Positions 1 to 64,000 of a stretch of 64,000 nucleotides of DNA are shown here, one piece after another. This DNA comes from a virus: IMG/VR virus record IMGVR_UViG_3300029305_001665. One strand, 5' to 3'. The notes beneath the pieces were generated by a model. The model saw nothing but the letters and a program-made list of their open reading frames with translations. It made no database searches and was not told the DNA's origin. The position numbers and the translations under genes were made by a program. The stretch's first letter is position 1, and each line of letters opens with the position of its first letter.

Positions 1-557
1 CGCGGGCTAGACATACGTACTGCATCAGCGTAATCTTTAGTGTCACGTAAAATCTCGTATTCTTGTTTAGTGACGTCGTTTCTGATATATACAGAGTCGT
101 CTAGTTCGTCCTCAAAATAGCGTCCGACATCATCCCCAACAGTCCCTTTTAAATCAGTAATGATGTTTAAATCTTTGTCCGCTAGTACTCCGTCATTGAA
201 GTAAGTAAGAGTAACTAACTCGAAATCATCACTGAAATCGGCAGCGTCAACAACATAGGGCTTGCTAAGAACTTCTTCGGGCTCTTCAGTATTAGAATAA
301 TTGGTATAGCCGCTTTTGGCCAGCATAGCGGCATAATCTTTAATATTTTGTTCTGTGTTTTCTTTTTCAGGAGCAGGAAGTTCGGGCGTATTATTTTCTT
401 TTTTATCGCCATACAATTCCACGTATCTGGCTTTAACGTCTGCTATCTCCTGATCAGAGATTTGTTTATACTTATTTTTAAGTATTTGCCAGCTTACGAA
501 GGAACCGATAGCGGCCCCTAACGTAAACGACAATACTGTTCCTAACTTGCTATTCAA
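1..557 (-). CDS. hypothetical membrane-anchored protein, 3'-partial (runs off window start)
   Basis: Minus-strand frame opens with TTG at 557 behind a GGAGGATAGAAAGG RBS. N-terminal hydrophobic helix (LGTVLSFTLGAAIGSFVSW), then an acidic soluble part. No stop codon before position 1, so it is unterminated and absent from the ORF track. Confidence 0.4.
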   Translation of the reverse strand, partial: MNSKLGTVLSFTLGAAIGSFVSWQILKNKYKQISDQEIADVKARYVELYGDKKENNTPELPAPEKENTEQNIKDYAAMLAKSGYTNYSNTEEPEEVLSKPYVVDAADFSDDFELVTLTYFNDGVLADKDLNIITDLKGTVGDDVGRYFEDELDDSVYIRNDVTKQEYEILRDTKDYADAVRMSSP

Positions 558-795
558 CCTTTCTATCCTCCGTTCTTATGTTATTTAAATTTTCAGGTAT
601 AAATATCATACTACCAAGTACTATACAGTCCAAATATCCGAGATTCAACCAAGTTAGAACTGTAGCTGCACCTACCTCCAATTCTTCGGCAACTTCTCCG
701 ATAGTTTTGAATCCTGTTAGTTTACCATCTTTAAATATAGGTTCGTCTTCGAGATTATTATTCAGAATATGAATGATCAGTTCCCGACCTGTCAT
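550..795 (-). CDS. small HTH DNA-binding protein (excisionase/MerR-like helix-turn-helix)
   Basis: 81 aa. Segment TIGEVAEELEVGAATVLTWLNLGYL is a typical excisionase/MerR-type HTH. Confidence 0.45.
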   Translation of the reverse strand: MTGRELIIHILNNNLEDEPIFKDGKLTGFKTIGEVAEELEVGAATVLTWLNLGYLDCIVLGSMIFIPENLNNIRTEDRKVE

Positions 796-887
796 TATAA
801 AACTCCTTTCTAATCTTTAGAATCTATATAGTCCATCATGTCTTGGTAAGGGTCTCCGGTCCAAGAATATCCGGGACCGAGATCATT

Positions 888-1870
888 TCAAATCAAACGA
901 TGAGCCTCGCGCTCGATTCGTTCGATGTCGGTTAAGATATTACCGTCAATATTGAAATCGAGAATGATAGAACGTTCATAGCCGTTTACGAAATCCTTGT
1001 TAGATTCTCTAGTTATATCGAAAATGCCGAAATCAATATAGTTATCTCCACGAGGATTCTTCTCGTCGTAAACCCAACCATGTGATTGACCCAATGCTGT
1101 TTTAGGGAATCCTAGCATTTCGTATACGTCGTTAACCGTTACGTAATGTCGGTGCTTTAACAAATCATTAGCCCAATTTTGCTGTTGCAGTAAGAAGTAC
1201 TTATTCTGTTCCGGATCTTTGGTCCAACCAATACAGCCAATATCGTACAGTCTAGCGAAAATGCTGTAATCTTCGGGTTTAAAGTCTGCGGGGACCATAT
1301 TATCGACGGTTCTCTTTACTTTCTTTTCCTTGCCTTTTTCGTCGACAATAGTCTCTTCGATTTCTTTAGTCTTAAGATTATACTTTAATTCTCTATCGAG
1401 TTTTTCGCCGAAGCGTTCAACTACGCGGCCTCTGTATTGTTTGAATCCTTTATCCACAGCAGCATAAGCAGTAGCGAGAGCTATGTTACGTCCATGAAGT
1501 ATCTTATGAGAACCAAAGAAACATGCAAGCGATGCGGCTCCTAAAAGAACAGAGGGAGCATATTGTTTAGCAATGTCTAATGCCGTTCTAGTATAAACGA
1601 TTGTTAAATCCTTCTTAGCATCTTCTTGAGTATAGGTTTCTCCTGCTTCGGTAACACCGGTTTCGCTAGCAGTATGAATTTTTGCTATTTTTTCTTTGCT
1701 TTCTTTAGCTACTTCGTCTACTTTTAGAGTTGCTTTACAAGCTAATACAGCACTAGTTACAGTGCCGGCAGCGCCAAGACCCATTAGAATCTCGGGACTG
1801 TGCTTTTTAATTTGGAAGCCTACTTTGCAAGCGAAGTTAGCTAAATTATTTAAAAATTGACCATTTGCCA
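888..1870 (-). CDS. hypothetical protein, paralog A of the 3256..4020 gene
   Basis: True start is probably MANGQ at 1870; the track ORF extends further upstream. Shares PEILxGLGAAGxVxxAV, YxPxxLxGAASxACxxGS and YRxxVVExxGEK blocks with the 3256..4020 product. Confidence 0.5.
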
Positions 1871-1876
1871 TATTAG

Positions 1877-2037
1877 TTATTCTCCTTTTGTAATTAAATT
1901 TACTAAAAAATTTCCGACACCGATCATACCAGCAATACATAAGCCCATCGCTAATATTCCGCCCGGATGGGTATAATCGAATGCTGCTACGGCGTATTCT
2001 TTATTCTTATCCACAAAACCTACAAATTTTTGTTCCA
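1877..2037 (-). CDS. small hydrophobic membrane peptide (53 aa)
   Basis: ATG at 2037 after AAGGAGGTAA. Product MEQKFVGFVDKNKEYAVAAFDYTHPGGILAMGLCIAGMIGVGNFLVNLITKGE has one TM helix. Not in ORF track (<60 aa). Confidence 0.35.
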
Positions 2038-2048
2038 TAATTACCTCC

Positions 2049-2187
2049 TTAGAACAACCATAATAATAATTTAGTAGTTAAAGCGATTGCTGTGCCGCCT
2101 ATGCAGACCGCTATACAAGCGAGTAATATTGTACTTAGCACTGTGCCGATATAATAACCGACAACTTTATTTTTATCTTTATTCATA
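2049..2187 (-). CDS. small hydrophobic membrane peptide (46 aa)
   Basis: ATG at 2187 after an AAGGAGG RBS. Product MNKDKNKVVGYYIGTVLSTILLACIAVCIGGTAIALTTKLLLWLF. Confidence 0.35.
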
Positions 2188-2196
2188 AATACCTCC

Positions 2197-2811
2197 TTAA
2201 TCTAGTGGTGCGGCTTTTGGTAATTTTATAATATAGCCGCCCATTACTCTTTCTACTGACGCTGATGAAACATCATACCAGCCGTACTTATCGCTCGTAT
2301 ATGGAGCAGTCATGTCGGCCATATCATACAGGTCCATGACCGTTACATATCCATAGCGTTGAATCGAACCCCACATTTGGTCGAGTACAAGCTCGGCGTC
2401 AGCTCTATTTGCGAATACGATATTTTGGTAATCGAATCGCGAGCTAGCTGCTCTAGGCTGAGCTACCGTTTTTTGAGGAGCGAATCTGTCCGCATAATTT
2501 GTGTAATATGAAATATTAGATAGCGGGTTATGTTTTTGTAGATTATTCCTACCGCCACCAAATATCATAGTTGCGCCTTTAATAATAATGTCGAGAATCG
2601 TATCCTTTACAGCAGGAATTACAATGTCGTCACGCACATAGTTTTTAACGTTATGAGCGTCGTCAGAAATAAACTTGCTAGCAAGCTTGGATAGCTCGCC
2701 TTGCTTCTGTACACGAGCAGCACCTTTTACAACTTTTTGCGCACGTTCTTTCTGCTGCTGTTGCTCGCGTTTGTATTTGTGCGAATTTGGTTTAATATCA
2801 GGTATTTCCAT
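2197..2811 (-). CDS. hypothetical protein (204 aa)
   Basis: Intact ORF with RBS. No motif recognised. Confidence 0.5.
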   Translation of the reverse strand: MEIPDIKPNSHKYKREQQQQKERAQKVVKGAARVQKQGELSKLASKFISDDAHNVKNYVRDDIVIPAVKDTILDIIIKGATMIFGGGRNNLQKHNPLSNISYYTNYADRFAPQKTVAQPRAASSRFDYQNIVFANRADAELVLDQMWGSIQRYGYVTVMDLYDMADMTAPYTSDKYGWYDVSSASVERVMGGYIIKLPKAAPLD

Positions 2812-2908
2812 CTAGTTTTCTCCTTTCGGTAAATAAATCTAAGCAAACAGAAAAGAAGATACCTTGTTAAGATATCCTCTTTTTGTTTGAGTAAATTGTG
2901 ATAAAATT

Positions 2909-3193
2909 TTAGTCGCCATACTTCGTCTGATCGAAGCAATCATCGTGCGTGGCGTTAGTTTGCTCTCCGCTATTGGCCTGTTCCGGCTGGTTTTTGTTCC
3001 TGCGGTTTTTAATCCAAGCTCTAATCTTCTTGAAGCCTTTTACGGTTAGCTCGCCTGCTTTCCAGACGCCTAAGCCGAGAAGGGCTAATCCTCCAACTTT
3101 AGCTGCGGGACTTAAACCGTCGGTATTGGGTTCCACCATAACGGGACCTTCGGTGAGTTCAGTTGCTTCTACGGTTTCAATGATTTCGTTCAT
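2909..3193 (-). CDS. small membrane protein (94 aa)
   Basis: Central hydrophobic helix (VGGLALLGLGVW). Preceded by the conserved 44-nt element. Confidence 0.45.
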   Translation of the reverse strand: MNEIIETVEATELTEGPVMVEPNTDGLSPAAKVGGLALLGLGVWKAGELTVKGFKKIRAWIKNRRNKNQPEQANSGEQTNATHDDCFDQTKYGD

Positions 3194-3200
3194 TTAAAGT

Positions 3201-3244
3201 TTCTCCTTTAATTTTCTTTTAAGTTTCTCATATTAGGAAATGTA
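3201..3244 (-). promoter_or_regulatory. conserved 44-nt upstream element, copy 1 (identical to 4251..4294)
   Basis: aattttcttttaagtttctcatattaggaaatgtaaaatccgcg occurs identically twice. On the minus strand it reads CGCGGATTTTACATTTCCTAATATGAGAAA and lies just upstream of a small membrane-protein gene. Confidence 0.5.
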
Positions 3245-3255
3245 AAATCCGCGTG

Positions 3256-4020
3256 TTAGTATTTGTCATAACCATACTTAGGCGGATACCAGAATCCAAC
3301 TACAAGACACGGCGTTCTTCCGTCGTCGGCTAATTGAGTAGTAAAGTGCGGCTTGATTAGACTCCAATCGGCTCTCCAGCCTATGGTATAACCGATATCA
3401 GTGGGATACAAACCTAGTTCCGTATAAAAGTCGTTCAACGATATTTCTTCACCGTTATTCATTTTGCGGTTTAATACATTAGCGATGCTTTCTATTTCGA
3501 TCTTGCTCGAATAGAAGTAACGTCCGCAAGTATTGTCGTAACATAAAGTATCGCCTTTACCAGTCTGTATAATTTCACTACCACTAGGCGGGTTTTTGGT
3601 AACTTTTTCCCTCATTATAGCTTCGCGTACTTCCTGCTCCTTCTTTTCACCAACCGTTTCTACTACTTTTTCGCGATATTCTGCTATAGCAGTTTCGGAA
3701 AGCTTATAAGCTGCTGCTAATGCGCTATAACGTTTAGCGTGTACGGTGTTGGAGCCAAGAATACATGCGATAGACGCTGCTCCGGATAATGCTGCTGGCA
3801 CGTAATACTTCCAAGTGCATTTGATTGTTTCTTTCATAGGAAGTTTATCGGTGTGTAGTTCTCTCTTCTTCTCTTCAACTGCCTTTAAAGCTTTGGGCGT
3901 AGCTTTTGCCGAAAATACCGCAGTTACTACAACGCCGGCCGCTCCAAGTCCAGTTAAGATTTCAGGTGTGTGCTCGGATAGAAATCTTCGAGTTGCTTTG
4001 AATAAAGTGTGTTTGCTCAT
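3256..4020 (-). CDS. hypothetical protein, paralog B of the 888..1870 gene
   Basis: 254 aa. Shares conserved blocks with paralog A. N-terminal basic stretch followed by a Gly/Ala-rich helix. Confidence 0.5.
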   Translation of the reverse strand: MSKHTLFKATRRFLSEHTPEILTGLGAAGVVVTAVFSAKATPKALKAVEEKKRELHTDKLPMKETIKCTWKYYVPAALSGAASIACILGSNTVHAKRYSALAAAYKLSETAIAEYREKVVETVGEKKEQEVREAIMREKVTKNPPSGSEIIQTGKGDTLCYDNTCGRYFYSSKIEIESIANVLNRKMNNGEEISLNDFYTELGLYPTDIGYTIGWRADWSLIKPHFTTQLADDGRTPCLVVGFWYPPKYGYDKY

Positions 4021-4098
4021 TTGTTTCTCCTTTCAGTTTTTTAAATTAAAGAATAAGACCCACTGTTTATAGTGAGTCCCATCCTGTTGAGTTGCTTA

Positions 4099-4236
4099 TT
4101 AGTCTTTAGATAGTTTTTTTAAAACTTTCTTTACTACGTTGTCCTCCATTTGGGATTGCTTATTAGCTCTATCCTTGTTAGTACAGATAGTCGCTAATAC
4201 AGTAAGTCCAAGTGCCATTGCCGCTAGAAAAGACAT
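4099..4236 (-). CDS. small hydrophobic membrane peptide (46 aa)
   Basis: ATG at 4236 after GGAGGTAATTAAAT. Product MSFLAAMALGLTVLATICTNKDRANKQSQMEDNVVKKVLKKLSKD. Followed by a hairpin terminator. Confidence 0.3.
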   Translation of the reverse strand: MSFLAAMALGLTVLATICTNKDRANKQSQMEDNVVKKVLKKLSKD

Positions 4237-4250
4237 ATTTAATTACCTCC

Positions 4251-4294
4251 AATTTTCTTTTAAGTTTCTCATATTAGGAAATGTAAAATCCGCG
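4251..4294 (-). promoter_or_regulatory. conserved 44-nt upstream element, copy 2
   Basis: Exact duplicate of 3201..3244. Sits directly upstream of the 4099..4236 peptide gene. Confidence 0.5.
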
Positions 4295-4296
4295 GA

Positions 4297-4656
4297 TTAG
4301 ATATCTTTCCTGTCGAAACACGTCTCCCAACGTTCTTTTGGTAGTGGTTTTAATTTTAATGCCCACATTATTTGGCGTATCGTAACAGTAGGATATAATC
4401 CGTCCGTACATTCTCCAGCACGTTTATCGAAAAAGACCTTGAAACCAGGACTTAGATATAGTACGTCTGGAAGCCAAGGATCTAATTCGGTCCAGTATGT
4501 GACCTTATTAATAGGATCATAACGTTGTTGTATGACTGCTAGACCCAGATCGCCGATTGCGAATAACGTACACCGATCGTATACCACATGATCGCACTCG
4601 TAGGTTTCGCCATACATAGTCGAATAAATTTTAGGTCGTTCGTAGTGATATCGCAT
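4297..4656 (-). CDS. hypothetical protein (~119 aa)
   Basis: Track ORF starts at 4689, but that N-terminus is read through the terminator hairpin 4692..4713. A GAGGG RBS plus ATG at 4656 is the likelier start. Confidence 0.4.
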   Translation of the reverse strand: MRYHYERPKIYSTMYGETYECDHVVYDRCTLFAIGDLGLAVIQQRYDPINKVTYWTELDPWLPDVLYLSPGFKVFFDKRAGECTDGLYPTVTIRQIMWALKLKPLPKERWETCFDRKDI

Positions 4657-4681
4657 ATATGCCCTCGCAATCAAAAAGCAA

Positions 4682-4713
4682 AAGGGCATTCGCGTTTGCC
4701 CTTATACTTTAAA
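4682..4713 (-). terminator. rho-independent terminator
   Basis: AAGGGCA/TGCCCTT 7-bp stem followed by a T-run on the minus strand, after the 4702..4893 gene. Confidence 0.5.
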
Positions 4714-4893
4714 TCCTAGTGATTCCATAGGTAGTAATATAGAAATCGGTTCGTTGCTAATTCGTTTCACGCTAAGCGTTAGTTTGCATGTTTTCTTGTC
4801 GACTACCTCAACCTTTTCGAATTGGCGATGATATCGATTAGAAACATGTGCTTCTAGTTCTTTTTGTAATTTCTCTTTAGCTTTTTTCGTCAT
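4702..4893 (-). CDS. hypothetical protein (63 aa)
   Basis: ORF with upstream RBS. No recognisable motif. Confidence 0.3.
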   Translation of the reverse strand: MTKKAKEKLQKELEAHVSNRYHRQFEKVEVVDKKTCKLTLSVKRISNEPISILLPMESLGFKV

Positions 4894-5000
4894 TTTTTAA
4901 TCCTCCTTAACAGTTTCACTACTGTTCATAATAGGGAGGGTATTTTTCGCGAAAAGAAAGAGCCCTTGATAGAGCTCCGTCTTTTGGATTTGGTTATCGG

Positions 5001-5396
5001 TTACTTCTTGTGAAATAGGTTCTTAAAGAATTCTCGTCCAAATATTGTGGTTACGGTTCCTTCTTTTTCAAACTCCATAGTTTTGTAAGTTCCCCAGACA
5101 GTTAGTCCTGTGGTAACCAGTAGAGTAGTTCCTTGCAGAATATTAGATACCACTCGTCCTCGTTTTTCGCTTTTAAGCTGTTCACGTTTTAAAGCTAATT
5201 CTTGCGAACGTTGTGCTTCGGCTGTGACTTGCGAATTTGCTTGTTGTTTAAGCTTTTGGAGTTCGATGTATCGGTCTGTAAGTTTGGTTACTCCGTCAAT
5301 AGTTACCTTATACTCGTCTGTTCCGGCTTCCATGTCTTTTAGAAGTTTGACTTCTGAATTTATTTCGTCTTCCAACAATTTTGTATCTAAGCTCAT
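5001..5396 (-). CDS. coiled-coil protein with C-terminal TM helix (131 aa)
   Basis: N-terminal heptad-like charged sequence. C-terminal hydrophobic segment TTLLVTTGLTVWG. Confidence 0.4.
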   Translation of the reverse strand: MSLDTKLLEDEINSEVKLLKDMEAGTDEYKVTIDGVTKLTDRYIELQKLKQQANSQVTAEAQRSQELALKREQLKSEKRGRVVSNILQGTTLLVTTGLTVWGTYKTMEFEKEGTVTTIFGREFFKNLFHKK

Positions 5397-5448
5397 TTTG
5401 TTACCTCCTTATAATGAATTTTCGATACGTAGTCCATAATAGGACGTG

Positions 5449-5679
5449 TTACTTACGCGTTTCACTTGGAAACTCGGTGTCTACTTTTAGAACAATGTAG
5501 TTCTGTCTAGCTAGTGCGTCTAGGTCCATACTATTTAGTTCGAGTCTACAGATATCTTTTTCCGGATCGGTGCAGTCGATCTTAAAGACACCGTATAAGC
5601 GTCTAAACCAAATAAAATTCATCAGAGCAGTTCCAATGACGATTCCTAAACTAAAAGCTATTACTAAATATATTTCCAT
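5449..5679 (-). CDS. small membrane protein (76 aa)
   Basis: N-terminal TM helix (IYLVIAFSLGIVIGTALMNFIWF). Confidence 0.4.
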   Translation of the reverse strand: MEIYLVIAFSLGIVIGTALMNFIWFRRLYGVFKIDCTDPEKDICRLELNSMDLDALARQNYIVLKVDTEFPSETRK

Positions 5680-5785
5680 CGCATACCTCCTTTAAGTACG
5701 ATTTGTCACTCTACTAAAATATCATCTTTCAGCGTCACCTGCGTACGGCAAATGTATTCTAGAATAGAAAGATTTAATCTAAATT

Positions 5786-5810
5786 AAAAAGAAAGAGACT
5801 GTGTAGTCTC
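5786..5810 (-). terminator. rho-independent terminator
   Basis: GAGACT gtgt AGTCTC perfect stem followed by TTTCTTTTT on the minus strand, directly after the 5813..5970 gene. Confidence 0.5.
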
Positions 5811-5812
5811 AC

Positions 5813-5970
5813 TAGTCCCCTTCTTTTGAGTTTCTAATTCGTTTAATGATCCATATTATTATTAGCGTTGCTATTATAATATCGCCAAATGCTAACAGAA
5901 TAGACAGGCTATATATAGCCGCTATAATGAATAGCGTAACAGCGATAAATAAACAGACAGATAATATCAT
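5813..5970 (-). CDS. small hydrophobic membrane peptide (52 aa)
   Basis: ATG at 5970 after AAAGGAGAA. Product MILSVCLFIAVTLFIIAAIYSLSILLAFGDIIIATLIIIWIIKRIRNSKEGD. Confidence 0.35.
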
Positions 5971-5990
5971 ATAGAGTTCTCCTTTTATTA

Positions 5991-6020
5991 ATTTCTCATA
6001 TTAGAACATGAAAAAACCGC
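5991..6020 (-). promoter_or_regulatory. conserved upstream element, copy 3
   Basis: tctcatattagaacatgaaaaaaccgcgg, related to copies 1/2. About 20 nt upstream of the RBS of the 5813..5970 peptide gene. Confidence 0.4.
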
Positions 6021-6030
6021 GGCTAAAGCG

Positions 6031-6056
6031 AAAAGAAAGAGCCCTTGCCAGAGCTC
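6031..6056 (-). terminator. rho-independent terminator (possibly bidirectional)
   Basis: GAGC ccttgccaga GCTC hairpin flanked by T/A runs on both strands, at the 3' end of the 6055..6261 gene. Confidence 0.45.
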
Positions 6057-6261
6057 AGCCTTTTTTAGTATTTTTTTCTTTGATCCAATAATAAAATTTA
6101 AGCGCAAAAAATGCCGTCGATGAAGTCATAAATATACAACCTAATATACTGTAAGGTACTATCACCGCATAGTATACACCTGGTATGATGTTGACTATTA
6201 GTGTAGATACCAATACTAATATAAGTAATATATATGTAAGCTTCTCAAAAAACAGCTTCAT
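6055..6261 (-). CDS. small membrane protein (68 aa, two TM helices)
   Basis: Almost entirely hydrophobic product. Start is preceded by copy 4 of the conserved element. Confidence 0.4.
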   Translation of the reverse strand: MKLFFEKLTYILLILVLVSTLIVNIIPGVYYAVIVPYSILGCIFMTSSTAFFALKFYYWIKEKNTKKG

Positions 6262-6290
6262 ATTGTTACCTCCTTTTAATATTTCTTTTT

Positions 6291-6320
6291 ATCATAATAG
6301 AACATGAAAAAACCGCGGCT
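6291..6320 (-). promoter_or_regulatory. conserved upstream element, copy 4
   Basis: atcataatagaacatgaaaaaaccgcgg, upstream of the 6055..6261 gene. Confidence 0.4.
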
Positions 6321-6375
6321 AAAATGAAAAAGAACAGAGCCTGTGTTAGACCCTGTCCTTCTTGAATTAAATTAT

Positions 6376-6480
6376 TTTCTTAATTCACCAACAAGTTTAA
6401 TGATAAGTTCAACGATAAAGTATCCAGTTACGAGTTTTAATACCGTAGCAAGAATTCCTCCATTTTGATTATCCATAATT
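6376..6480 (-). CDS. mini hydrophobic peptide (34 aa)
   Basis: ATG at 6480 after GGAGGTAAGAAATT. Product MDNQNGGILATVLKLVTGYFIVELIIKLVGELRK. Confidence 0.25.
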
Positions 6481-6491
6481 TCTTACCTCCT

Positions 6492-6641
6492 TAAGATTCT
6501 AATGTTTCTTCATTTAAGGAGATGTTTACACCGCGTTCTTCGCGCTTGTCTAGATAATACTGAATTAACTTCTTAGTTCCGTAAGATGCTGCCAAAGAAA
6601 CCAATGCTGTAGTTGTTGAGATTAATAGTGATTTTTTCATA
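6492..6641 (-). CDS. small secreted/membrane peptide (49 aa)
   Basis: ATG at 6641 after GGAGGATGATATTT. Product MKKSLLISTTTALVSLAASYGTKKLIQYYLDKREERGVNISLNEETLES has a signal-peptide-like N-terminus. Confidence 0.3.
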
Positions 6642-6659
6642 AATATCATCCTCCAAATT

Positions 6660-7079
6660 TTATCCTCTTAATTTATTTAATAGCCAAAAGAATCGTCTAT
6701 ACCGATCATAGTACATGTCCTTACCACACGGTATACCCATCTTTGACTTTAAATACGAATATGATAGATTTTCAGTTACTGCTTTTAATATGTATTCAGA
6801 TAAATATCTGTCAGCTTCCATTGCGGCTTTCTCAACCAGATGCATTTTCTCAGCGTAATGAGTTTTCATTATTGCTCGCTTAGCAGTCGGATCGCCTGGA
6901 AGGTTGCTGGTTGAAACTCTCTCGATCATCGAAAGCGGCATCCCTTCGTCATCGAACTCAGCGTATGCTTGTTTCCAACTTGGGTACTGTAAACAAAAAT
7001 GTTTGAGTTCGTAATGTCGATGTTTATCAATACGATATTTGTTACGTATGGATAGTTCAGCTCGTAAATTCGTAGCCAT
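6660..7079 (-). CDS. hypothetical protein (~139 aa), possibly a small phage transcription regulator
   Basis: ORF begins TTG-ATG; the ATG at 7079 is the likely start. Size and position beside the switch are compatible with an ArpU/RinA-type regulator, but I see no confident motif. Confidence 0.3.
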   Translation of the reverse strand: MATNLRAELSIRNKYRIDKHRHYELKHFCLQYPSWKQAYAEFDDEGMPLSMIERVSTSNLPGDPTAKRAIMKTHYAEKMHLVEKAAMEADRYLSEYILKAVTENLSYSYLKSKMGIPCGKDMYYDRYRRFFWLLNKLRG

Positions 7080-7327
7080 CAATCTTCACCTCTTATGTAC
7101 TCTTCGTAAACTTCTATGTATTCTTCGATTCTTTTAATTTTTCTTTTAAGCGAATCAAGCTCTCTTTCTTGCAGTAGAATCAGCTCGACTAGTTCTGTGA
7201 TGATGTCGTCTTTTCTCATTTTCATCCTCCTTAAACTTAATTTGAATCTTAGCGTCGTGCTTCTGACTTAAAATTCGACTAAGTACCTCTTCTATTCTAG
7301 ATTTCATTTCTCGGCTCTCCTCACTCG

Positions 7328-7430
7328 GTGTCTAATTAAGACACTTTTACTTTACTACGCCCTAAAAGTGTATGTCAACACTAAAATTGATTTTTTAGAC
7401 ATAAAAGTTTATAATAAAGACACTCGAAGG
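7328..7430. promoter_or_regulatory. divergent promoter/operator region of the lysogeny switch
   Basis: Inverted repeat GTGTCTaattaAGACAC at 7329..7345 and a second IR GTGTatgtcaACAC. AGACA(T/C) half-sites are repeated. TTGATT-17-TATAAT lies upstream of the XRE gene, with a GGGAGG RBS before a TTG start. Confidence 0.45.
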
Positions 7431-7441
7431 GAGGTACACAG

Positions 7442-7777
7442 TTGGAAATAGGACAAAAAATTAAGAAAGCTAGATTAGAAAGGGGGCTTACACAGCAAGA
7501 ACTTGGAGATATAGTTGGCGTCCAGAAATCAGCCATAGCTAAATACGAAAATGGAAGAGTCGTAAATATAAAAAGAAGCACCTTACAGAAAATTGCAAGT
7601 GCTTTAAATATTAGACCATCAGAGCTCATCTTTACTGAGTCGCCAAGAGACGCCGCTGATCTTCATGTCAGGATAATTACAGATTTTGAGTTGATGGAAT
7701 CTATTAAGGATTATTATTTATTGAGTGAGGAGAACCAAAAAATGGTGCGAGACCTTATACGTAGCCTTAGAAAGTAA
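7442..7777 (+). CDS. XRE-family HTH transcriptional repressor (CI-like)
   Basis: N-terminal LTQQELGDIVGVQKSAIAKYENG is a canonical XRE HTH. Located at the switch, immediately upstream of the integrase. Confidence 0.8.
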   Translation: MEIGQKIKKARLERGLTQQELGDIVGVQKSAIAKYENGRVVNIKRSTLQKIASALNIRPSELIFTESPRDAADLHVRIITDFELMESIKDYYLLSEENQKMVRDLIRSLRK

Positions 7778-7984
7778 ATAACTTCTTAGCAAATTCGTAC
7801 AAGTATTCAATCTCGTCTTCAGTGAGTGTTTCTAATAGTTCGAGTAATTCTTGCTTCACGTGGTAATACGGCTCCTTTCAACCGGGGCAAGGTTTAGTTA
7901 GAACAAATGTTCTGAAAATATTATAAAAATTGTAAAATTGAAAATCAACGAGTAAATATTGGTAAAACTGGAGGAAATTACATC

Positions 7985-9349
7985 ATGAGCAGAATTATCA
8001 GAGTAGGTATTTATGGAAGGGTTAGTACGGAAGAGCAAGCACTTAGTGGTTATTCAATTGAAGCCCAAGTAGAAGCATTAGAGAAATACGCTAAAGAAAA
8101 CAATATGAAAGTCGTCGGGGTCTATCTGGACGAAGGGATATCTGGAGCAAAGCCGCCGTTAAAACGTCCTGATCTTAAACGTTTATTAGACGATGTGGAA
8201 GCTGGGAAGATTGATATGATATTATTCACCAAATTAGATCGTTGGTTCCGGTCCGTTAAAGAATATTTTAAAGTACAAGATGTTCTTGATAATAATAAAG
8301 TCGAATGGAAAGCTATTCAAGAAAACTACGATACTACTACAGCTAACGGTCAAATGGCTATTACGATTTTCTTGGCGGTCGCTCAGAATGAACGCGATAG
8401 AACAGCAGAGCGTATTAAAGTAGTGCTAGAACAAAAACGAAAAAATAAGATTGCATGTTTCGGAGGTAAAGCATTACCGTTTGGGTACAAGAAAGAAGAG
8501 GATGAAACCGGTATTAGTAGATTGGTGAAAGACCCAGAGACTCAAAAAGCAGTTCAAGAGTTTTGGGATATTTTGATCAAATCTAACAATCTCAACAAAG
8601 CTATCCGCCATATGGTTGATGTGTATGGTATAAATAAAGATTGGAAGTCTTGGAAACGAATGACCCAGAGTGACTTCTATTGCGGAATACATCGTGGTGT
8701 TCAGGACTTTTGTCCAGCGTACGTAACACCAGAAGATTTCCTTAAATTTCAAGAACGAGATACTATTAAAGGAACTCCTACTGGGGTACCATATTACTTC
8801 AGAGGGTTAATGCGATGCCATGAATGCGGACATAAATTATGTGGTGATTGTGACCGAAGATATGGTAGAATTAACAAATCATACCGTTGTGCTTGGAGAG
8901 GACGCGGTTGCGAAAATCATAAGGCGGTGACTGAAATTAAAACTGAGAAACAATTATTAGAACGTCTGGACGAGTTCATGAAAAATACTATTGCGGAAGT
9001 TGAAGTGGAAGCTAACCATCCTAAAAATAAATCTGACGTCGAGCGAGTGTTAAAGAATTTGAAAGAACGGTTAAGACGTTTGAACGTAACTTATATGGCT
9101 GGTAACAAAACTGACGAAGAATATTTCAAAGAAGATGCGGAGATTAAATTACTGATCGCCAAGGCCGAAAAAGAATATGCAGATACTAAGCCAAGGAATG
9201 TAGACCACCTTAAAGAATTGCTAGCTACTGATTTTAGAACAATGTACTCAACGTTAGAGCCCGAAGAGAAACAAGAGTTCTGGCAGGACCTTATCAAGGA
9301 GATAAAGCTTGATGGAAAGCGGGTTACGGACGTTATTTTTTATACGTGA
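7985..9349 (+). CDS. large serine recombinase (phage integrase)
   Basis: 454 aa. N-terminal resolvase catalytic domain (GIYGRVSTEEQ with catalytic Ser). Recombinase domain, Cys-rich zinc ribbon (CHECGHKLCGDC...C) and C-terminal coiled coil. Confidence 0.9.
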   Translation: MSRIIRVGIYGRVSTEEQALSGYSIEAQVEALEKYAKENNMKVVGVYLDEGISGAKPPLKRPDLKRLLDDVEAGKIDMILFTKLDRWFRSVKEYFKVQDVLDNNKVEWKAIQENYDTTTANGQMAITIFLAVAQNERDRTAERIKVVLEQKRKNKIACFGGKALPFGYKKEEDETGISRLVKDPETQKAVQEFWDILIKSNNLNKAIRHMVDVYGINKDWKSWKRMTQSDFYCGIHRGVQDFCPAYVTPEDFLKFQERDTIKGTPTGVPYYFRGLMRCHECGHKLCGDCDRRYGRINKSYRCAWRGRGCENHKAVTEIKTEKQLLERLDEFMKNTIAEVEVEANHPKNKSDVERVLKNLKERLRRLNVTYMAGNKTDEEYFKEDAEIKLLIAKAEKEYADTKPRNVDHLKELLATDFRTMYSTLEPEEKQEFWQDLIKEIKLDGKRVTDVIFYT

Positions 9350-9410
9350 TTTAACGGTGGAACCGGACATCATGGACTGAGATAGTCCATTTACACCCGA
9401 TTTTAGCAAA

Positions 9411-9447
9411 AAGAAGAGAGCCTGTAAATGGTTCTCCTCTTTTTTTG
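9411..9447 (+). terminator. terminator of the integrase transcript
   Basis: Imperfect hairpin agaagagagcc...ggttctcctct followed by TTTTTTT. Confidence 0.45.
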
Positions 9448-9448
9448 G

Positions 9449-9778
9449 TTAAATCAATCCTCTTATGTCGAATATACATAAATCAGGATGAATCTTTTCA
9501 ATCGTCCTAGCAAGTTCCTTGTACTGGCGTTTCGTGCATTGTACATTGAAAAACTTGTTTTCATATTCGTCTGTATCCTTTATGGCGTTCTCCTCAGAGT
9601 CTGCGAAACCCATTAATCCTTCACCTAATTTAGGTGTCTTATTATCGAGTTTTGCTCCTTTGATTGGAACACTTCCAGTAATCATACGAGATATTCCGTA
9701 AAGTTCTCCGAGCGTAAATGCGTCGGTGCCAAGTTTGTGCTTAACTTTAATAGTTACTTTAAAAAGTTCATTTTTCAT
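9449..9778 (-). CDS. hypothetical protein (109 aa)
   Basis: Intact ORF. Preceded by copy 5 of the conserved element and a terminator. Confidence 0.5.
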   Translation of the reverse strand: MKNELFKVTIKVKHKLGTDAFTLGELYGISRMITGSVPIKGAKLDNKTPKLGEGLMGFADSEENAIKDTDEYENKFFNVQCTKRQYKELARTIEKIHPDLCIFDIRGLI

Positions 9779-9810
9779 AATTGTATTTCTCCTATAATTT
9801 ATTGTTTTCC

Positions 9811-9836
9811 ATATTATAGGATGTTTATAACGCGAA
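9811..9836 (-). promoter_or_regulatory. conserved upstream element, copy 5 (diverged)
   Basis: ccatattataggatgtttataacgcg, related to the 3201/4251/5991/6291 copies. About 25 nt upstream of the 9449..9778 start. Confidence 0.35.
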
Positions 9837-9845
9837 CAAAAAAGA

Positions 9846-9872
9846 AGAGGGGTTGTATAATACGCGCCCTCT
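9846..9872 (-). terminator. rho-independent terminator
   Basis: AGAGGG/CCCTCT stem followed by TCTTCTTTTTTG on the minus strand, after the 9880..10260 gene. Confidence 0.5.
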
Positions 9873-9879
9873 TTCTCTA

Positions 9880-10260
9880 TTAACTTTCGAATATATTTTG
9901 TATGCCTTGATCCATTATGAAATCTTTTTCTTCATTTTGAATCTTATTGGCTAACTCTAATGCTGCGTGCATATCGCCATTACAGTGAGCATCGGGAATA
10001 CGTTGCACAGCCTTGGCAGTCGCTTCAGCTAATACATTCGTAGCCCGACTGGTTTGCATAATATAGAGCATTAGTTTTTCAACTTTCTTTTCACGCTCAA
10101 TACGTTGCTTTTCTGCTTCTTTACGTTCTTCCTCTCGTCTATATTCTTCTTCTCTACGTTTTTCATCTTTCAATTCAATCGAACGTTTAAAATACCAAAC
10201 GATGAAACCCATAACAGCGGACGGTATACCACCAGCAATGAGAAATTCTAATATTGTCAT
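9880..10260 (-). CDS. holin-like membrane protein (N-terminal TM, charged coiled coil)
   Basis: 126 aa. N-terminal TM helix (ILEFLIAGGIPSAVMGFIVWYF), then a highly charged R/E/K-rich helix. Sits at the end of the tail-fibre module, where BhlA/XhlA-type lysis accessory genes occur. Confidence 0.4.
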   Translation of the reverse strand: MTILEFLIAGGIPSAVMGFIVWYFKRSIELKDEKRREEEYRREEERKEAEKQRIEREKKVEKLMLYIMQTSRATNVLAEATAKAVQRIPDAHCNGDMHAALELANKIQNEEKDFIMDQGIQNIFES

Positions 10261-10284
10261 GTCGATTACTTCCTTTTAAACATT

Positions 10285-12243
10285 TTATACGCCGTACACA
10301 TAGCGTAAAACATACTTATTATTTGCGTATACGATACCGCTTGTGCCGGTGCCGGTTGCGGAATTATTCGCATGACCGGATATATACGTATCATTTATAT
10401 ATAGATATTTGTGACAAATTTGTCCAAAGTTGATATCCATCATGGTAAAAGCGTTGCCGTACCCTTTATGACTCGTGATGAATAATTTGGGAACGAAGAA
10501 GCTATTAAAATTGTTTTCTTCTGCTGCTCCAGTTGTAGAATTATACTTACTAAATACCAACACAATACCATTTGGCTGGAGACTAACGGCTTCGGCCAAA
10601 TTTATGGTATGATCAGCAGTCATATATCTAGTGCCTTCCCATAATATTTTTTGCTCGTGATAGACTTTACTAGATGCATCTGGAGTAAGGGTTGTTCGAT
10701 ACCAATCGTAATACGTCCAAACATTGTCCGAATTTCTAGTAATATCTCTTTCCCATACAGCGTTCGTGATGTTATACGGAACGAATCTTTGGCGTAAGTA
10801 GGACCACTGTTCACTACGAATTCCCTCACCGGTTGCCGACCACACTTCTAAACGTCCAGCTCTTGCTACGGGCATATTCGCTATGGTAGAAGCATTATCA
10901 TTTCGATAAACCGCATAGCAACCAGTTTCCATATAGTTATTAAAATCTGCATTAGCAGGAATTTCGGGAAGTCTACCCATACCCAAAGCGTTACCATATA
11001 CGGCGCTATTAAATTTACCTTCAAATTCAAATTCGGCGACGCCATCTAACTCGGCAGCTTTACCAAAGGCTACGCCTTTACCACCAGCTAAGAAGTCTAC
11101 AACAAATCTCATACTAGTTAAAGTACCAACCGCATAAGAACTACCACCACCGTCGGTAACAGTAATATGTATATCATAAGACGATTCCGTACTTAAAGCA
11201 TTCGAACCAATTACGTGAGAGACAGTACCGCTCGTTCCACTAGCAGTTACAGTAGAACTCGTCCATGTCGTATCCGAGGGCAATTTCCACTTGATCACTA
11301 TTGAACTTACGGTTTGATCGCATTCCCAGTCAAATACGACTAGGCCGTTCGTGCCGTCATCTGCTGCAGTTCCGCTAGAGTCGCTTCTAACAATAGACAC
11401 ATTGGATATCCTTGGTTTTATATAAGCTATTTCCCATACTGCGTATAGTGTTATTCCTGCATTGGCCGTATAACTTGCACCAGACGCGTAAGATACAGTA
11501 GTTGCAGATGCTGACGTACCCCAACCTTTGAAATTATAGTTAGCTCTAGTAGGTTTTGTACTTGATAGAGTGAGGGCTACGCCATATGTTTTAGTCTGAT
11601 TACCTGGTGCTCCTGAGCCGCCGTTTGCGTTATATTTAACGGTGTATGTGTTAGCCTTCCATACTGCATAAAGAGTTGCTGCAGCGTCTGTGGTGTAATT
11701 TGCTCCTGCTGCCCATGAAGCAGATGTTGCAGTTGATGACGTAGACCATCCTAAGAACGAGTAACCAGTCCTAGTAGGTTTTGTGCTGGAGAGCACGAGT
11801 GTTTGACCTTTCCATTTAGTCTGATTACTAGGTGCGCCTGAACCACCGTTTGCGTTATACTTAATCGTATAAGAAGTCCAAGCGGGGACAGTTACGTTGA
11901 ATGTTACGTTCTTGGTAGCAGAATCGCCGTTATCAGTATTAAAGTTTCTAAAAGTAACTGTAATAGATTTAGTGGCCGATCCGTTACCACTTATCGAATA
12001 TGTGCCTGTAAACGAGCCGCTACCACTACTTCTCTTCGTTCCATTAAATGCGCTTATCGTATGCGTAACGCCGCCAGAAGCAGCGGTCATACCATAATTG
12101 GTTTGTGCTCCGGAGTAATAAGTCTCCCAGGAAGCATTAATTACTACTTTGTATTGAGTAGCTGATGTTCTAGTCACGGTCCCCGCAGTTGCAGTGACAT
12201 CTAAAGCGACACCAAATGGCGTCCATTTTGAAACAGTTGCCAT
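10285..12243 (-). CDS. tail fibre / receptor-binding protein with two Listeria-Bacteroides (Flg_new-type) repeats
   Basis: 652 aa, Ser/Thr/Gly-rich. Two repeats YT(I/V)KYNANGGSGAP.NQTK...L.LSSTKPTR.GY.F.GW.TS...LYAVW fit the List_Bact repeat. Confidence 0.55.
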   Translation of the reverse strand: MATVSKWTPFGVALDVTATAGTVTRTSATQYKVVINASWETYYSGAQTNYGMTAASGGVTHTISAFNGTKRSSGSGSFTGTYSISGNGSATKSITVTFRNFNTDNGDSATKNVTFNVTVPAWTSYTIKYNANGGSGAPSNQTKWKGQTLVLSSTKPTRTGYSFLGWSTSSTATSASWAAGANYTTDAAATLYAVWKANTYTVKYNANGGSGAPGNQTKTYGVALTLSSTKPTRANYNFKGWGTSASATTVSYASGASYTANAGITLYAVWEIAYIKPRISNVSIVRSDSSGTAADDGTNGLVVFDWECDQTVSSIVIKWKLPSDTTWTSSTVTASGTSGTVSHVIGSNALSTESSYDIHITVTDGGGSSYAVGTLTSMRFVVDFLAGGKGVAFGKAAELDGVAEFEFEGKFNSAVYGNALGMGRLPEIPANADFNNYMETGCYAVYRNDNASTIANMPVARAGRLEVWSATGEGIRSEQWSYLRQRFVPYNITNAVWERDITRNSDNVWTYYDWYRTTLTPDASSKVYHEQKILWEGTRYMTADHTINLAEAVSLQPNGIVLVFSKYNSTTGAAEENNFNSFFVPKLFITSHKGYGNAFTMMDINFGQICHKYLYINDTYISGHANNSATGTGTSGIVYANNKYVLRYVYGV

Positions 12244-15200: not shown

Positions 15201-15497
15201 ATGGATAACCGTTACGGTTGCTGCTCCTTGGCTTACAGACTGTCTGTCTAGGTTCGAAGTAATAATCGCGGCGTGATTTTTAATCGTCACTATTACTCTA
15301 TCGCCTTTAATAACCTCTACTGTTTCCGAGACAGGTAATTCCGTATATGCACCGGTTGCGCCATCTAGTTTTACATATACTTGCCCGGCTTCGATTTTAC
15401 TTACAGTTCCATATACAGTGCTCTCTTTTTTAACATTGGAGGTATCGTTTTTTGACATCTTTACAAATTTAGATATAACATCGTTTGACAAACTCAC
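12243..15497 (-). CDS. tail fibre / host-specificity protein with two carbohydrate-binding-like repeats
   Basis: 1084 aa. N-terminal coiled-coil-like region. Two ~150-aa repeats starting GGRNL and ending W(T/S)PAPED(L/M). Position is downstream of the tape measure and distal tail genes. Confidence 0.55.
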   Translation of the reverse strand: MSLSNDVISKFVKMSKNDTSNVKKESTVYGTVSKIEAGQVYVKLDGATGAYTELPVSETVEVIKGDRVIVTIKNHAAIITSNLDRQSVSQGAATVTVIHKNVTDLTNSVVEMGTVLSDKVDTKDLTATNGRVETLETDVVTVNKKLKVAEETLTKKLTADEADLKYAQIGTLESIEIDVGVLYSDNINIKERLTAAEGRIEELGAVNLEAVNGEITNLKTRVGDIETITSKVITTDNITSEFSNSVISQVGDAQIKSAQIQNIDASKIQSGSIDTNKVDIKSNDGSFVIADNRLQIKEGDTVRVQIGKDGAGNYSVTICDKEGNVIFSEDGITENGIPDNIIVNDMVSETANIHASKLDIVSLFEEIDGSTNTIKSTKITVDDEGQTLEAKLTTLATTESVDGLSETVTSQGTQIAANTEAINTKIWQQDIDTAKNEIGETTTELSTKYSELEQSLSGFQTTVSETYATKTEVDNIKIGGRNLFGFNKNVVIEPLANTAYARNTFDKSINGFVVTILADAPNAMIIARAHRLGFNGVAGESYTFSSTVYTNGDSVRINMDICDRGNTTFTVDNNPKKITFTAIPENYYDNGSYNGFVDVAVYGTEGIPSGTILYFKDVKIERGNMATDWTPAPEDLTGKDEYRAIETRVSQTETDITSVANRTTVVEDKFNNYSTTEQMNSIINQTAEGINSTVATVRTEVKNLEVGGRNLLLGTSNTLLVDNTTDFAYSEKTVMYTLCEEITNDPKAFLLSIENSYLVFSYDINVSEIYKNPDKTLNRAGGYFTFNFTNTETGAMTAWYGTHSSGISATSNVFGTGNSLFSVGDEVVSFKGHYAGYCVMSANEGPTILRSFYANPDQYTVTVSKAYLELRGYTKGGTIKNAKLEIGNKPTRWSPAPEDMTTNEETSKLQTSSAELSSRVTTAESLIEQLSHSISMLVTDGNGTSLMTQTDTGWVFSTENIQNTVNRISEDLSTLSDDVGDVDNTVSILQQAVDDLGILGEYIQITTYEDEPCIELGELDSDFKLRITNTRMMFTEGSVVLAYFTNQSFHSKKVVVEEELQQGGFVWKARANGNLGLIWKGGNS

Positions 15498-35530: not shown

Positions 35531-35543
35531 ATGTTATCACCGT

Positions 35544-48462: not shown

Positions 48463-48738
48463 ACTCTCAGCCTCCTTTGTATGGTTTTAGTATTAGTTGT
48501 TAAGTAGTTTGTGACAGTACTTACTAAGATCCACATGACTTTCACATGATTTATTTACCGAAAGGAGAAAGAAAAGTCCTACACCACTAATTAGCCATGT
48601 GGACCTTGGTAAATACTGCCTTTCCGCCGGGGAAAATATAGAAAAGTTTTCTGAAAATATACCCCCGGGGAAAAATATAAGACCGGCGCGATGCTAGGAG
48701 GGGGTGTATTTTTGGCGACCCCCCCCTATGTTTAATGG
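48463..48738. promoter_or_regulatory. GC-rich repeat/palindrome region at the head of the late gene block (candidate cos/pac site or late promoter)
   Basis: In otherwise AT-rich DNA: ccgccggggaaaatatagaaaag and cccccggggaaaaatataagacc direct repeats, a palindromic CCCCGGGG, and a G8...C5 hairpin (ggagggggtg...gacccccccc). Confidence 0.35.

Positions 48739-63402: not shown

Positions 63403-64000
<598 letters not shown>

Follow-up and report, generated by a model that had tools for sequence, protein, structure and literature searches.

Does the short element repeated ahead of several small genes of a gut phage act as a promoter and, if so, which RNA polymerase (RNAP) would read it? The window analyzed here is the whole 64,000-nt stretch of the virus record IMGVR_UViG_3300029305_001665, which comes from a temperate gut siphovirus of about 71 kb; this is a relative of the cultured Faecalibacterium phage FP_oengus, and the same phage is also present as a 71.5-kb metagenomic contig. 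A first-pass annotation of the window had described the recurring element and had suggested that it could be a promoter class serving a phage-specific polymerase, for instance a YonO-like enzyme, or an activator, or else a shared RNA leader. Our analysis indicates that the element is very probably a promoter and, on balance, we favor a phage-lineage-specific promoter class that would be read by the phage's own two-barrel polymerase. The strategy was comparative and inferential: from the motif, its statistics, the rules of strand and position that it follows, its conservation, and the constraints on the start site, we infer the promoter role, the enzyme that would read it, the role of the helix-turn-helix (HTH) modules of this enzyme, and the timing of expression.

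A strand-specific element at gene boundaries

On the coding strand, the element reads nnCGCG(G)-N6-ACAT-N4-TAWTATG-A, and nine gapless copies were found in the window, all on the minus strand. When the invariant skeleton CGCG-N7-C-N6-T-N3-ATG was used as the query, nine matches were obtained, all minus, whereas 100 shuffles gave 0.35 ± 0.54 matches, with a maximum of 2. In agreement, a position weight matrix (PWM) generated from the copies gave scores of 31-45 bits for these, as against 5-7 bits for the best of all other sites on the two strands. This confirmed that the element is real and occurs far above chance, and the recurrence described in the first-pass annotation was thus borne out.

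The copies are given here as 32-nt windows in plus-strand coordinates, with the position of the invariant G in brackets. Two of them, at 3225-3256 (G 3229; detected with the pattern and the PWM) and 4266-4297 (G 4270), belong to a pair of segments that are identical over 44 nt, 3210-3253 and 4251-4294; this identity had been recognized before, but the first interval had been shifted by 9 nt from its true position. The former copy lies upstream of a 94-aa open reading frame (ORF; 2909-3193), and the latter abuts the stop codon of ORF 4297-4689 and precedes a 45-aa hydrophobic ORF (4099-4236). The copy at 4923-4954 (G 4927) follows a terminator at 4978-4959 and precedes ORFs 4702-4893 and 4297-4689, and that at 5431-5462 (G 5435) overlaps the stop codon of ORF 5449-5679, ahead of ORF 5001-5396. 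The copy at 5993-6024 (G 5997) is found after a terminator at 6056-6039 and before a 52-aa membrane-protein ORF (5812-5970), and the one at 6289-6320 (G 6293) after a hairpin with a T-run at about 6350-6325 and before a 68-aa membrane-protein ORF (6055-6261). The copy at 6507-6538 (G 6511), previously listed as only possible (6500-6540), proved genuine; it overlaps the 3' end of ORF 6491-6649, precedes a 34-aa ORF (6372-6476), and is the first copy downstream of the gene assigned to PHROG 11237. Further away, 9806-9837 (G 9810) has the holin-like gene 9880-10260 on one side and the att/recombinase region on the other and precedes a soluble 109-aa ORF (9449-9778), and 52952-52983 (G 52956) follows a terminator at 53025-53007 and heads the endonuclease-exonuclease-polymerase operon. 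All six copies of the earlier list were genuine, and the three that start at 4923, 5431, and 52952 had been missed.

All nine copies are located at gene boundaries. Five of them lie after a terminator-like hairpin and four touch the stop codon of the ORF before them or overlap it, so the statement that every copy comes just after a terminator applied to only part of the set. Similarly, the downstream genes had been described as encoding small membrane proteins in every case, but only four of the products are clearly hydrophobic; another two are borderline, and the remaining three, the VRR-Nuc endonuclease among them, are soluble. The distance to the ribosome-binding site is not fixed at 20-40 nt either: the Shine-Dalgarno (SD) sequence starts about 13-35 nt past the G in the window and, at the closest, 0-6 nt past it in relatives. 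Since the copies stand at gene starts, often right after terminators, re-initiation of transcription is required at these places.

Two minus-strand genes within the motif-rich region lack the motif. ORF 5449-5679, which encodes a membrane protein, lies after a terminator and is preceded by a weak sigma-A-like pair (TTTAGA-16-TAGAAT, 5783-5756). The DUF6353 gene 3256-4020 lies after a terminator at 4085-4050 and has no recognizable promoter, which implies terminator read-through.

A two-barrel polymerase homologue encoded in the window

The candidate reader of the element is a 1008-aa protein encoded at 49014-52040 on the minus strand, a homologue of two-barrel polymerases of the QDE-1/YonO type whose activity is predicted from its sequence and modeled fold. 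It carries a DFDGD motif at residues 531-535, which was invariant in sets of 7 and of 30 aligned homologues, and it was assigned to PHROG 4291 ('RNA-dependent RNA polymerase') with E = 0. Identity was 50% to gp55 of FP_oengus and 35-43% to actinophage and lactococcal proteins. The AlphaFold model had a moderate pLDDT of 69, with values below 50 in the catalytic region, and when it was compared with the PDB by Foldseek, the top six matches were all QDE-1 (E = 5e-4, prob 0.98), with a low TM-score (0.16). A weak profile match to the beta' subunit of the AR9 non-virion RNAP (nvRNAP) was located at the DFDGD loop. In a preprint that described this cross-phylum lineage and its HTH-flanked polymerase-like protein, an HHpred match of the protein to the RdRP (RNA-dependent RNA polymerase) family was reported, and no promoter was mentioned (10.1101/842583).

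The protein has an N-terminal HTH at residues 99-124 and a C-terminal, sigma-r4-like HTH at residues 973-1005, both conserved in every lineage examined, and among the core proteins common to all lineages by tblastn it was the only one with recognizable DNA-binding domains. At least 8000 homologues were counted in the protein collection, and the family was found in 250 phage records. Most of these are from cultured phages, among them many SEA-PHAGES phages of Arthrobacter, Gordonia, and Streptomyces, as well as dairy phages of Lactococcus; DUF6353 showed the same distribution as the polymerase in the collection. Upstream of the polymerase gene and in the same minus-strand orientation are the genes for a VRR-Nuc-like endonuclease (52600-52890) and a Cas4-like exonuclease (52012-52587). 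Right after it, also on the minus strand, is the gene for a 92-aa PHROG 4303 protein (48739-49017), which is conserved in all lineages examined and could be an accessory factor.

Conservation of the element in polymerase-bearing phages

A megablast search of the motif region against phage genomes gave no match, and relatives were reached via their proteins instead. The motif architecture was found at 5-27 copies per genome across FP_oengus, 160 metagenomic relatives, and polymerase-bearing phages of other hosts. After the PWM had been refined on the first genomes, 14 strong copies and one weak match were obtained in FP_oengus, and about 23 copies in scaffold MT835485, all of them on the coding strand. 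In 80 IMG/VR loci selected via PHROG 11237, 784 matches of at least 20 bits were on the gene strand and none on the other, and 695 of the 784 were downstream of the PHROG 11237 gene. Another 80 loci were selected via the polymerase by an alignment-based search (a single-sequence locus search gave nothing); here, 150 matches were on the gene strand versus 2 on the other, and the motif was present in 73 of the loci. Where a polymerase locus extended far enough upstream, a copy was nearly always found ~100 nt ahead of the endonuclease gene (~70 of 72 informative relatives). Past the polymerase gene, at the beginning of the late genes, these loci had almost no copies, and the late genes of the window likewise lack the motif.

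Among cultured phages of other hosts, the motif reads ctCGCA-N6-ACAC-N2-CC-TATAATG-AGAC in Gordonia phage Runhaar (9 copies), and the same architecture was detected in Arthrobacter phage Gordon (10 copies), Bifidobacterium phage BitterVaud1 (6 copies), Rhodococcus phage ReqiPoco6 (13 copies), and Microbacterium phage Count (5 copies). In Lactococcus phages 1706/CHPC971, the form is ttC(G/A)CA-tgttt-TACATA-N3-TATAGTAGAAAG (copies not counted), and in Lactococcus phage P078 it is AATTTTAAGTTTTACATACCCTATAATGARAGG, without the CGC (10 copies). The motif and the polymerase were found together in 10 cultured-phage lineages or scaffolds, spanning two phyla; the element thus co-occurs with the phage RNAP across relatives regardless of host, although other core genes co-occur too. 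With the gut-trained PWM, no copies were detected in Streptomyces phage Scap1 (61% GC), which has the polymerase, and no motif array was present in MT835477, which has no polymerase, or in 45 kb of SPbeta.

A co-occurrence test with scaffolds MT835485 and MT835495 was dropped because both are apparently partial and cut inside the genome. The former has the motif and PHROG 11237, no polymerase, and no homologues of the terminase, portal, and tape-measure proteins; the latter has the polymerase and two motif copies, no PHROG 11237, and starts just upstream of the polymerase operon.

Next, we compared the N-terminal HTH with the upstream half of the motif. The HTH helix reads SPGSVTNY in P078, whose putative promoters lack the CGC, and (P/G/N/S)ES(S/T)VR at that position in the other eight polymerases compared. 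Seven of these eight, including those of Lactococcus 1706/CHPC971, come with a CGCG, CGCA, or CACA element, and no motif was detected for the eighth (Streptomyces Scap1). Lactococcus 1706/CHPC971, which share the host genus of P078, retain both the ES(S/T)VR-type helix and the C(G/A)CA element. These sequences hint that the HTH helix and the CGC element covary.

This conservation also bears on whether the element could be a non-transcriptional DNA repeat at module boundaries, serving recombination or cassette exchange between small accessory genes. The identity of the copies at 3225-3256 and 4266-4297 extends beyond the core, suggesting recent duplication or exchange, and the motif flanks highly variable small genes. 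However, the element is strictly oriented with transcription, is found at the conserved polymerase operon and at a fixed distance before tRNA genes (see below), and shows base-specific conservation across the time separating phages of Actinobacteria and Firmicutes. We regard this explanation as highly improbable, and a promoter role and a DNA-repeat role are in any case compatible and not exclusive.

The putative transcription start

A logo of 664 unique gut-clade copies, numbered from the invariant G, showed T-26 T-25 C-24 G-23 C-22 G-21, an A/T-rich stretch from -20 to -15, A-14 C-13 A-12, C-7 T-6, T-4 T-3 A-2 T-1, and G+1 followed by purines. Within it, the TATG was near-invariant (T 0.81, A 0.98, T 1.00, and G 0.92). 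Three independent constraints then allowed us to place a putative start. First, ARAGORN detected 39 tRNA or tRNA-like genes at 400 nt or less downstream of a copy, and 29 of them start 1-6 nt past the G; in FP_oengus, the first base of a tRNA-like gene is the base right after the G. The transcripts of these genes would therefore be nearly leaderless. Second, the SD core starts 6 nt or less from the G in 138 of 561 copies. Third, a hairpin begins at +1 to +5 in 37 of 50 leaders of the polymerase operon. Collectively, these data suggest that transcription starts at the invariant G, or 1-2 nt from it, and with a start of the sigma-70 type, 6-8 nt beyond the hexamer, transcription would begin within these tRNAs and SD sequences. 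The tRNA or tRNA-like genes that start 1-6 nt past the G, many of which have irregular anticodon loops ('tRNA-???'), are found in the loci L017 (11977), L037 (12094), L038 (12095/13722), and L003 (2935) and in 25 further loci.

The same data were used to weigh an RNA-level element, i.e., a 5' leader common to the genes, a site at which an endonuclease would cut after UAUG, or an element of translational control. Strand specificity and the location ahead of ribosome-binding sites are in line with such a role, tRNA 5' ends at 1-6 nt past the G could arise by processing, and the pyrimidine stretch (CC/CT) could pair with SD sequences. However, with five of the nine copies after a terminator, the element would mostly be absent from upstream transcripts, and its distance to the SD goes from 0 to >40 nt, unfit for a translational operator. 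The conserved block lies nearly all upstream of the putative start and has no evident conserved fold; no Rfam match was obtained at gathering thresholds in the whole window, 5'-terminal hairpins at the putative +1 were not enriched when all copies were considered (31 of 664, no more than at other offsets), and the fold stability of the polymerase-operon leader in the window gave z = -1.0. In addition, a 28-nt linear recognition sequence is atypical for RNases. The shared leader of the first-pass annotation is thus disfavored, and we give RNA-level explanations as a whole very little chance.

Comparison with promoters of the host RNAP

As noted in the first-pass annotation, the spacing is at odds with a sigma-A -35/-10 pair: no -35-like hexamer is conserved 16-18 bp upstream of TAWTAT, and CGCG and ACA lie 14 and 5 bp upstream of it, respectively. 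In a promoter scan of positions 1-10500, a 9-of-12 sigma-A match (5465-5436) overlapped the copy at 5431-5462, with its TATTAT as the -10, and there was no overlap with the other copies. When the hexamer was analyzed, T at position 6 was invariant and A at position 2 was found in ~52% of the 664 gut-clade copies, with T in FP_oengus (CTTTAT). Within the gut clade, the -10-like hexamer is not kept (CTTTAT or TTTTAT), whereas CGC, ACA, and ATG are. Among phages of other hosts, Lactococcus P078 and the actinobacterial ones have a perfect TATAAT as the hexamer, and Lactococcus 1706/CHPC971 have TATAGT.

We then considered whether the copies could be ordinary host sigma-A promoters, with a TATAAT-like -10 box and conserved flanks. 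Promoters with only a -10 are common in Actinobacteria, and the perfect TATAAT of the actinobacterial and lactococcal versions would fit this explanation. Moreover, the announcement of the Gordonia cluster DJ phage Vardy described five intergenic copies of a 50-bp motif, interpreted as sigma-70 -10 promoters (PMC9671010). Runhaar is near-identical to Vardy, and the Vardy motif, with five TATAAT copies among small membrane-protein genes and terminators, is almost certainly the same element; it was treated within one cluster and was not tied to a polymerase homologue or to other lineages. This announcement aside, no promoter was described for YonO-like enzymes or this lineage in the literature searched. 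The host sigma-A explanation, however, does not account for the missing -35, for a gut-clade hexamer of T(A/T)TTAT or CTTTAT with the essential A at position 2 in only about half of the copies, or for tRNA 5' ends and SDs located where 6-8 nt to the start should be. The fixed spacing of CGC and ACA across two phyla would also be unexpected for host-specific promoters, and genuine sigma-A-like promoters in the window look different, as seen in the divergent pair of the lysogeny switch at 7349-7415 (TTGACA-18-TAAAGT leftward and TTGATT-17-TATAAT rightward, from the promoter scan). We consider it quite improbable that these are ordinary host promoters. By this indirect test, the start spacing of sigma-70 promoters does not seem to be kept, and the element appears as a contiguous block reaching the start, in many same-strand copies before phage genes, as in promoters of phage RNAPs.

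Other promoter types were tried and rejected. Sporulation sigma-E/K promoters have a CATAnnnTA -10 consensus with a -35 located 16-17 bp upstream; CAT-N4-TA is present in the nine copies, but the fourth base is never A, and nothing is conserved 16-17 bp upstream, with CGCG found 7 bp upstream. By eye, neither SigB/F-type spacings nor a plus-strand antisense promoter, as in a type I toxin-antitoxin arrangement, were conserved among the copies. The T4 MotA/AsiA middle promoters combine a box displaced from -35, bound by MotA at -30, with a -10-like hexamer, and are activated by early phage proteins. They need a sigma-70 -10 with a start about 7 nt downstream, a spacing that fails here; no MotA/AsiA homologues were found, and the early ORFs gave no Pfam, NCBIfam, or PHROG match to such factors.

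The PHROG 11237 protein as a candidate early factor

The gene assigned to PHROG 11237 (6660-7082, minus strand) encodes a 140-aa protein that is predicted to be all-helical and has >4000 homologues. Of the larger genes that separate the switch promoter from the first motif copy in the gut clade, it is always the last; this copy lies within ~1.1 kb of its stop codon in 80 of 80 loci, mostly at 0-400 nt. A role of the protein as an activator or antiterminator would be a guess, and the activator variant proposed in the first-pass annotation is less likely than the polymerase.

It could be, then, that the copies are middle-class promoters of the host RNAP, redirected by a phage factor binding CGCG/ACA, which in this clade could be PHROG 11237; the phage polymerase, itself one of the products of this class, would then serve other (late) genes, like YonO in SPbeta. 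The placement of the gene between the sigma-A switch promoter and the first motif copy, just ahead of this copy in all 80 loci, is in agreement with this possibility, as are the C-terminal part of the protein, HTH-like by eye, the presence of the motif ahead of the polymerase operon itself, and the lack of motifs in late genes, which are the genes transcribed by YonO (PMC5467207). However, no PHROG 11237 homologue was detectable by tblastn in the motif-bearing phages of Lactococcus, Gordonia, Arthrobacter, and Bifidobacterium, that is, in four lineages that have motif and polymerase, and conversely, MT835477 has a distant homologue (37% identical; 35962-36375) with neither polymerase nor motif array. 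Both observations favor the polymerase over PHROG 11237 as the partner of the motif. In virulent relatives, the first motif copies immediately follow tail or holin genes, and no early gene lies ahead of them. In addition, a start at the G would leave no room for a sigma-70 -10 hexamer plus discriminator, the key A of the hexamer is often missing, and the PHROG 11237 protein showed no Pfam, NCBIfam, or PDB sequence match, with a poor model (pLDDT 60). On these grounds, a redirected host RNAP seems unlikely. In MT835477, an unrelated scaffold, the PHROG 11237 homologue is part of a tight operon, just upstream of a 519-aa ORF.

The leader of the polymerase operon

At the putative +1 of the copy that heads the polymerase operon, a hairpin followed by a U-run begins (52905-52956, minus strand; sequence and fold), which resembles a terminator or attenuator, or could be a short RNA. 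A hairpin with a U-run after the motif was found in 45 of 65 unique polymerase-operon leaders versus 10 of 664 other copies, indicating that it is specific to this copy. The leaders of the window and of Lactococcus P078 (23618-23725 and 28301-28414) share AUGAGAG...inner GCG hairpin...CUCUCAU-U(n). In several polymerase loci, a tRNA-Met is placed between the attenuator and the endonuclease gene. In Runhaar, the genes for HNH, VRR-Nuc, Cas4, and the polymerase are preceded by a 372-nt non-coding stretch (35295-35667) with several AAATCTTGCCAAA-like repeats, and immediately ahead of VRR-Nuc lies a diverged motif copy (GGGTTATAACGGATAGG plus a hairpin).

In the virulent Lactococcus phage 1706, the polymerase homologue orf75 (EU081845.1, 3083-6172) was deposited as a 'structural protein', a label echoed in the ReqiPoco6 record (gp047), and its RefSeq re-annotation is RNA-dependent RNA polymerase. 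Judging from the label as deposited, the 1706 homologue may be packaged in virions.

Comparison with other phage polymerases

T7-type promoters are contiguous sequences of ~23-30 bp that end at +1, with a purine-rich initial transcript and many copies on one strand. The architecture is similar, but the T7 polymerase has a right-hand fold and the one studied here a two-barrel fold, and the promoter sequences are unrelated. The closest formal parallel seems to be the phiKZ late promoter, 5'-TATG-3', with the G as +1 (PMC4666361). As proposed here, the phiKZ and AR9 nvRNAPs are sigma-less two-barrel phage RNAPs with a promoter that overlaps the start and a TATG that ends at the initiating G. They differ in being multisubunit enzymes with no fused HTH that use a 4-nt motif without defined upstream elements, whereas CGCG and ACA are found here together with a single-chain QDE-1-like enzyme. 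The start proposed here is deduced from sequence.

A second parallel is the siphovirus P23-45, which has single-chain two-barrel RNAPs and motifs of ~30 nt (-30 to +1) before its early and middle genes; these genes are transcribed by a single-subunit enzyme, a second, virion-borne one starts the programme, and motif presence follows polymerase presence among relatives (PMC10770324). The window phage is similar in that the motif tracks the polymerase, and the virion delivery of P23-45 has a counterpart in the 'structural protein' label of the 1706 homologue. The polymerase families, however, share no detectable similarity, the motifs are others, and P23-45 has no HTH fusions. The window phage, in turn, has no tape-measure protein fusion: its 2316-aa tape-measure ORF showed no DxDxD motif.

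YonO, the single-chain two-barrel RNAP of the SPbeta prophage, is essential for phage development, and its promoter sequence was left undefined (PMC5467207). One promoter was mapped there, for a single late operon, whereas here many copies lie before non-structural genes and none before structural ones. TCATTTATGAGGG is found in the amplicon from which the YonO start was mapped, and again 157 nt further upstream; this sequence resembles positions -7 to +5 of the motif. The yonN-yonK spacer has two copies of TCATTTATGA(A/G)GGT, one of them inside the primer-extension amplicon. The published start coordinate, 2225998 of B. subtilis 168, could not be placed on the sequence. These similarities are a lead only. 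The fuller form of the spacer copies is (C/G)TCG(A/G)(C/A)TAAT(G/A)(T/G)TCATTTATGA(A/G)GGT, on the minus strand at ~15430-15460 and 15585-15610, 157 nt apart.

Other features of the window

All the long ORFs of the window are on the minus strand, with two exceptions: 7442-7777, which encodes an Xre-type HTH repressor, and 7985-9349, which encodes a large serine recombinase. Along the minus strand, the order begins with replication and metabolism genes, followed by those for the endonuclease, the Cas4-like exonuclease, the 1008-aa polymerase-like protein, and the 92-aa protein; it continues with HNH, terminase, portal, capsid, the 2316-aa tape measure, tail genes, and the holin-like gene, and ends with gene 9449-9778, the opposite-strand recombinase and repressor, the divergent switch, and the small genes plus DUF6353 genes. 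The switch region (7308-7441) has repeated (T/A)AGACA(C/T) half-sites, which are probably operators, and between the recombinase gene and ORF 9449-9778 lies a 100-nt spacer (9350-9448) with a bidirectional terminator and, presumably, attP.

The 276-nt gap downstream of the polymerase and PHROG 4303 genes (48463-48738, minus strand) contains a G8...C5TCC hairpin around TCGCCAAAAATACA, which matches the upstream half of the motif and lacks the TATG half, and two copies of TATATTTT(T)CCCCGG(G/C)GG. This gap is a possible cos/pac site or late control region, and virulent relatives have cos ends there. A 22-mer, TTCTCCTTTCGGTAAATAAATC, is present once per strand, 45 kb apart, at 2818-2839 (plus) and 48548-48569 (minus); its complement at 2818-2839 is the ribosome-binding region of gene 2197-2811. 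In-frame tandem repeats were found within large structural ORFs at 20826-22337, 23625-24180, 38359-38825, and 35727-35911; periods are 186/372 nt and 189 nt in the 2316-aa tape-measure ORF, and 69-96 nt and 33 nt in other ORFs. A GCCAGA-type hexanucleotide run was observed at the right edge of the window (63844-63999).

Discussion

If the favored reading is right, the promoter would span from about -26 to +4, with TTCGCG at -26 to -21, the A/T-rich stretch at -20 to -15, ACA at -14 to -12, C-T at -7/-6, TTAT at -4 to -1, and G as +1, followed by purines. The HTH modules of the polymerase would bind the upstream CGCG and ACA elements, and the catalytic core would melt the DNA and initiate at the junction of TAT and G. 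Promoters of this class may drive many short non-structural units, i.e., small membrane proteins, DUF6353 genes, and, in relatives, tRNA-like genes, and also the polymerase operon. In virulent relatives, injected enzyme may start the programme after infection; such an enzyme, if real, would make sense of the motif at the very first early genes of these phages. After induction of a prophage there would be no injected enzyme, and this may be why the temperate clade has a sigma-A switch promoter and an extra early protein, PHROG 11237, both of which may be needed. More tentatively, we entertain the possibility that the HTH-flanked family is self-sufficient without a sigma factor, reading a bipartite promoter via its own HTH modules, delivered in the virion in virulent members, and controlling its own operon via a promoter-proximal terminator hairpin.

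Several points weigh against a promoter class read by the phage polymerase. In nearly all relatives, the polymerase operon is itself headed by the motif, so a bootstrap would be needed, by injected enzyme, read-through, or host transcription, and this arrangement fits a 'middle' promoter of the host RNAP equally well. The late genes have no motif here, and it is the late genes that YonO transcribes in SPbeta (PMC5467207). All motif phages of the collection share other core genes, and co-occurrence therefore cannot single out the polymerase. The relation to YonO is distant, with an alignment limited to the DxDGD region, and the model of the polymerase is only moderate, above all in its catalytic region. 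The covariation of the HTH helix with the CGC element comes from one lineage, and the possible packaging in virions rests on the 1706 label. Finally, with a perfect TATAAT in actinobacterial and lactococcal motifs, some use by host sigma-A is possible in those phages. The early and middle transcription of P23-45, together with the 'structural protein' label of 1706, softens the difficulty posed by the polymerase operon and the late genes.

The polymerase family, the lineage, and one cluster-level sighting of the motif are already described. The link between motif and polymerase, the pan-lineage conservation, the putative start at the G, and the putative attenuator of the polymerase operon were not found in the literature searched. 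Single-chain two-barrel polymerases (YonO, crAss gp66, and QDE-1 relatives) are widespread, and their promoter recognition is largely unknown; a precise candidate promoter with a predicted +1 makes the targets of such an enzyme directly testable. It also offers a handle on annotating transcription units in hundreds of genomes, and on the independence of this lineage from host sigma factors while crossing phyla. This raises the question of whether the enzyme and its promoter could be used as a compact orthogonal expression system for Gram-positive bacteria. If true, a self-sufficient polymerase would be a portable, host-independent transcription system, kept as the lineage moved between Actinobacteria and Firmicutes.

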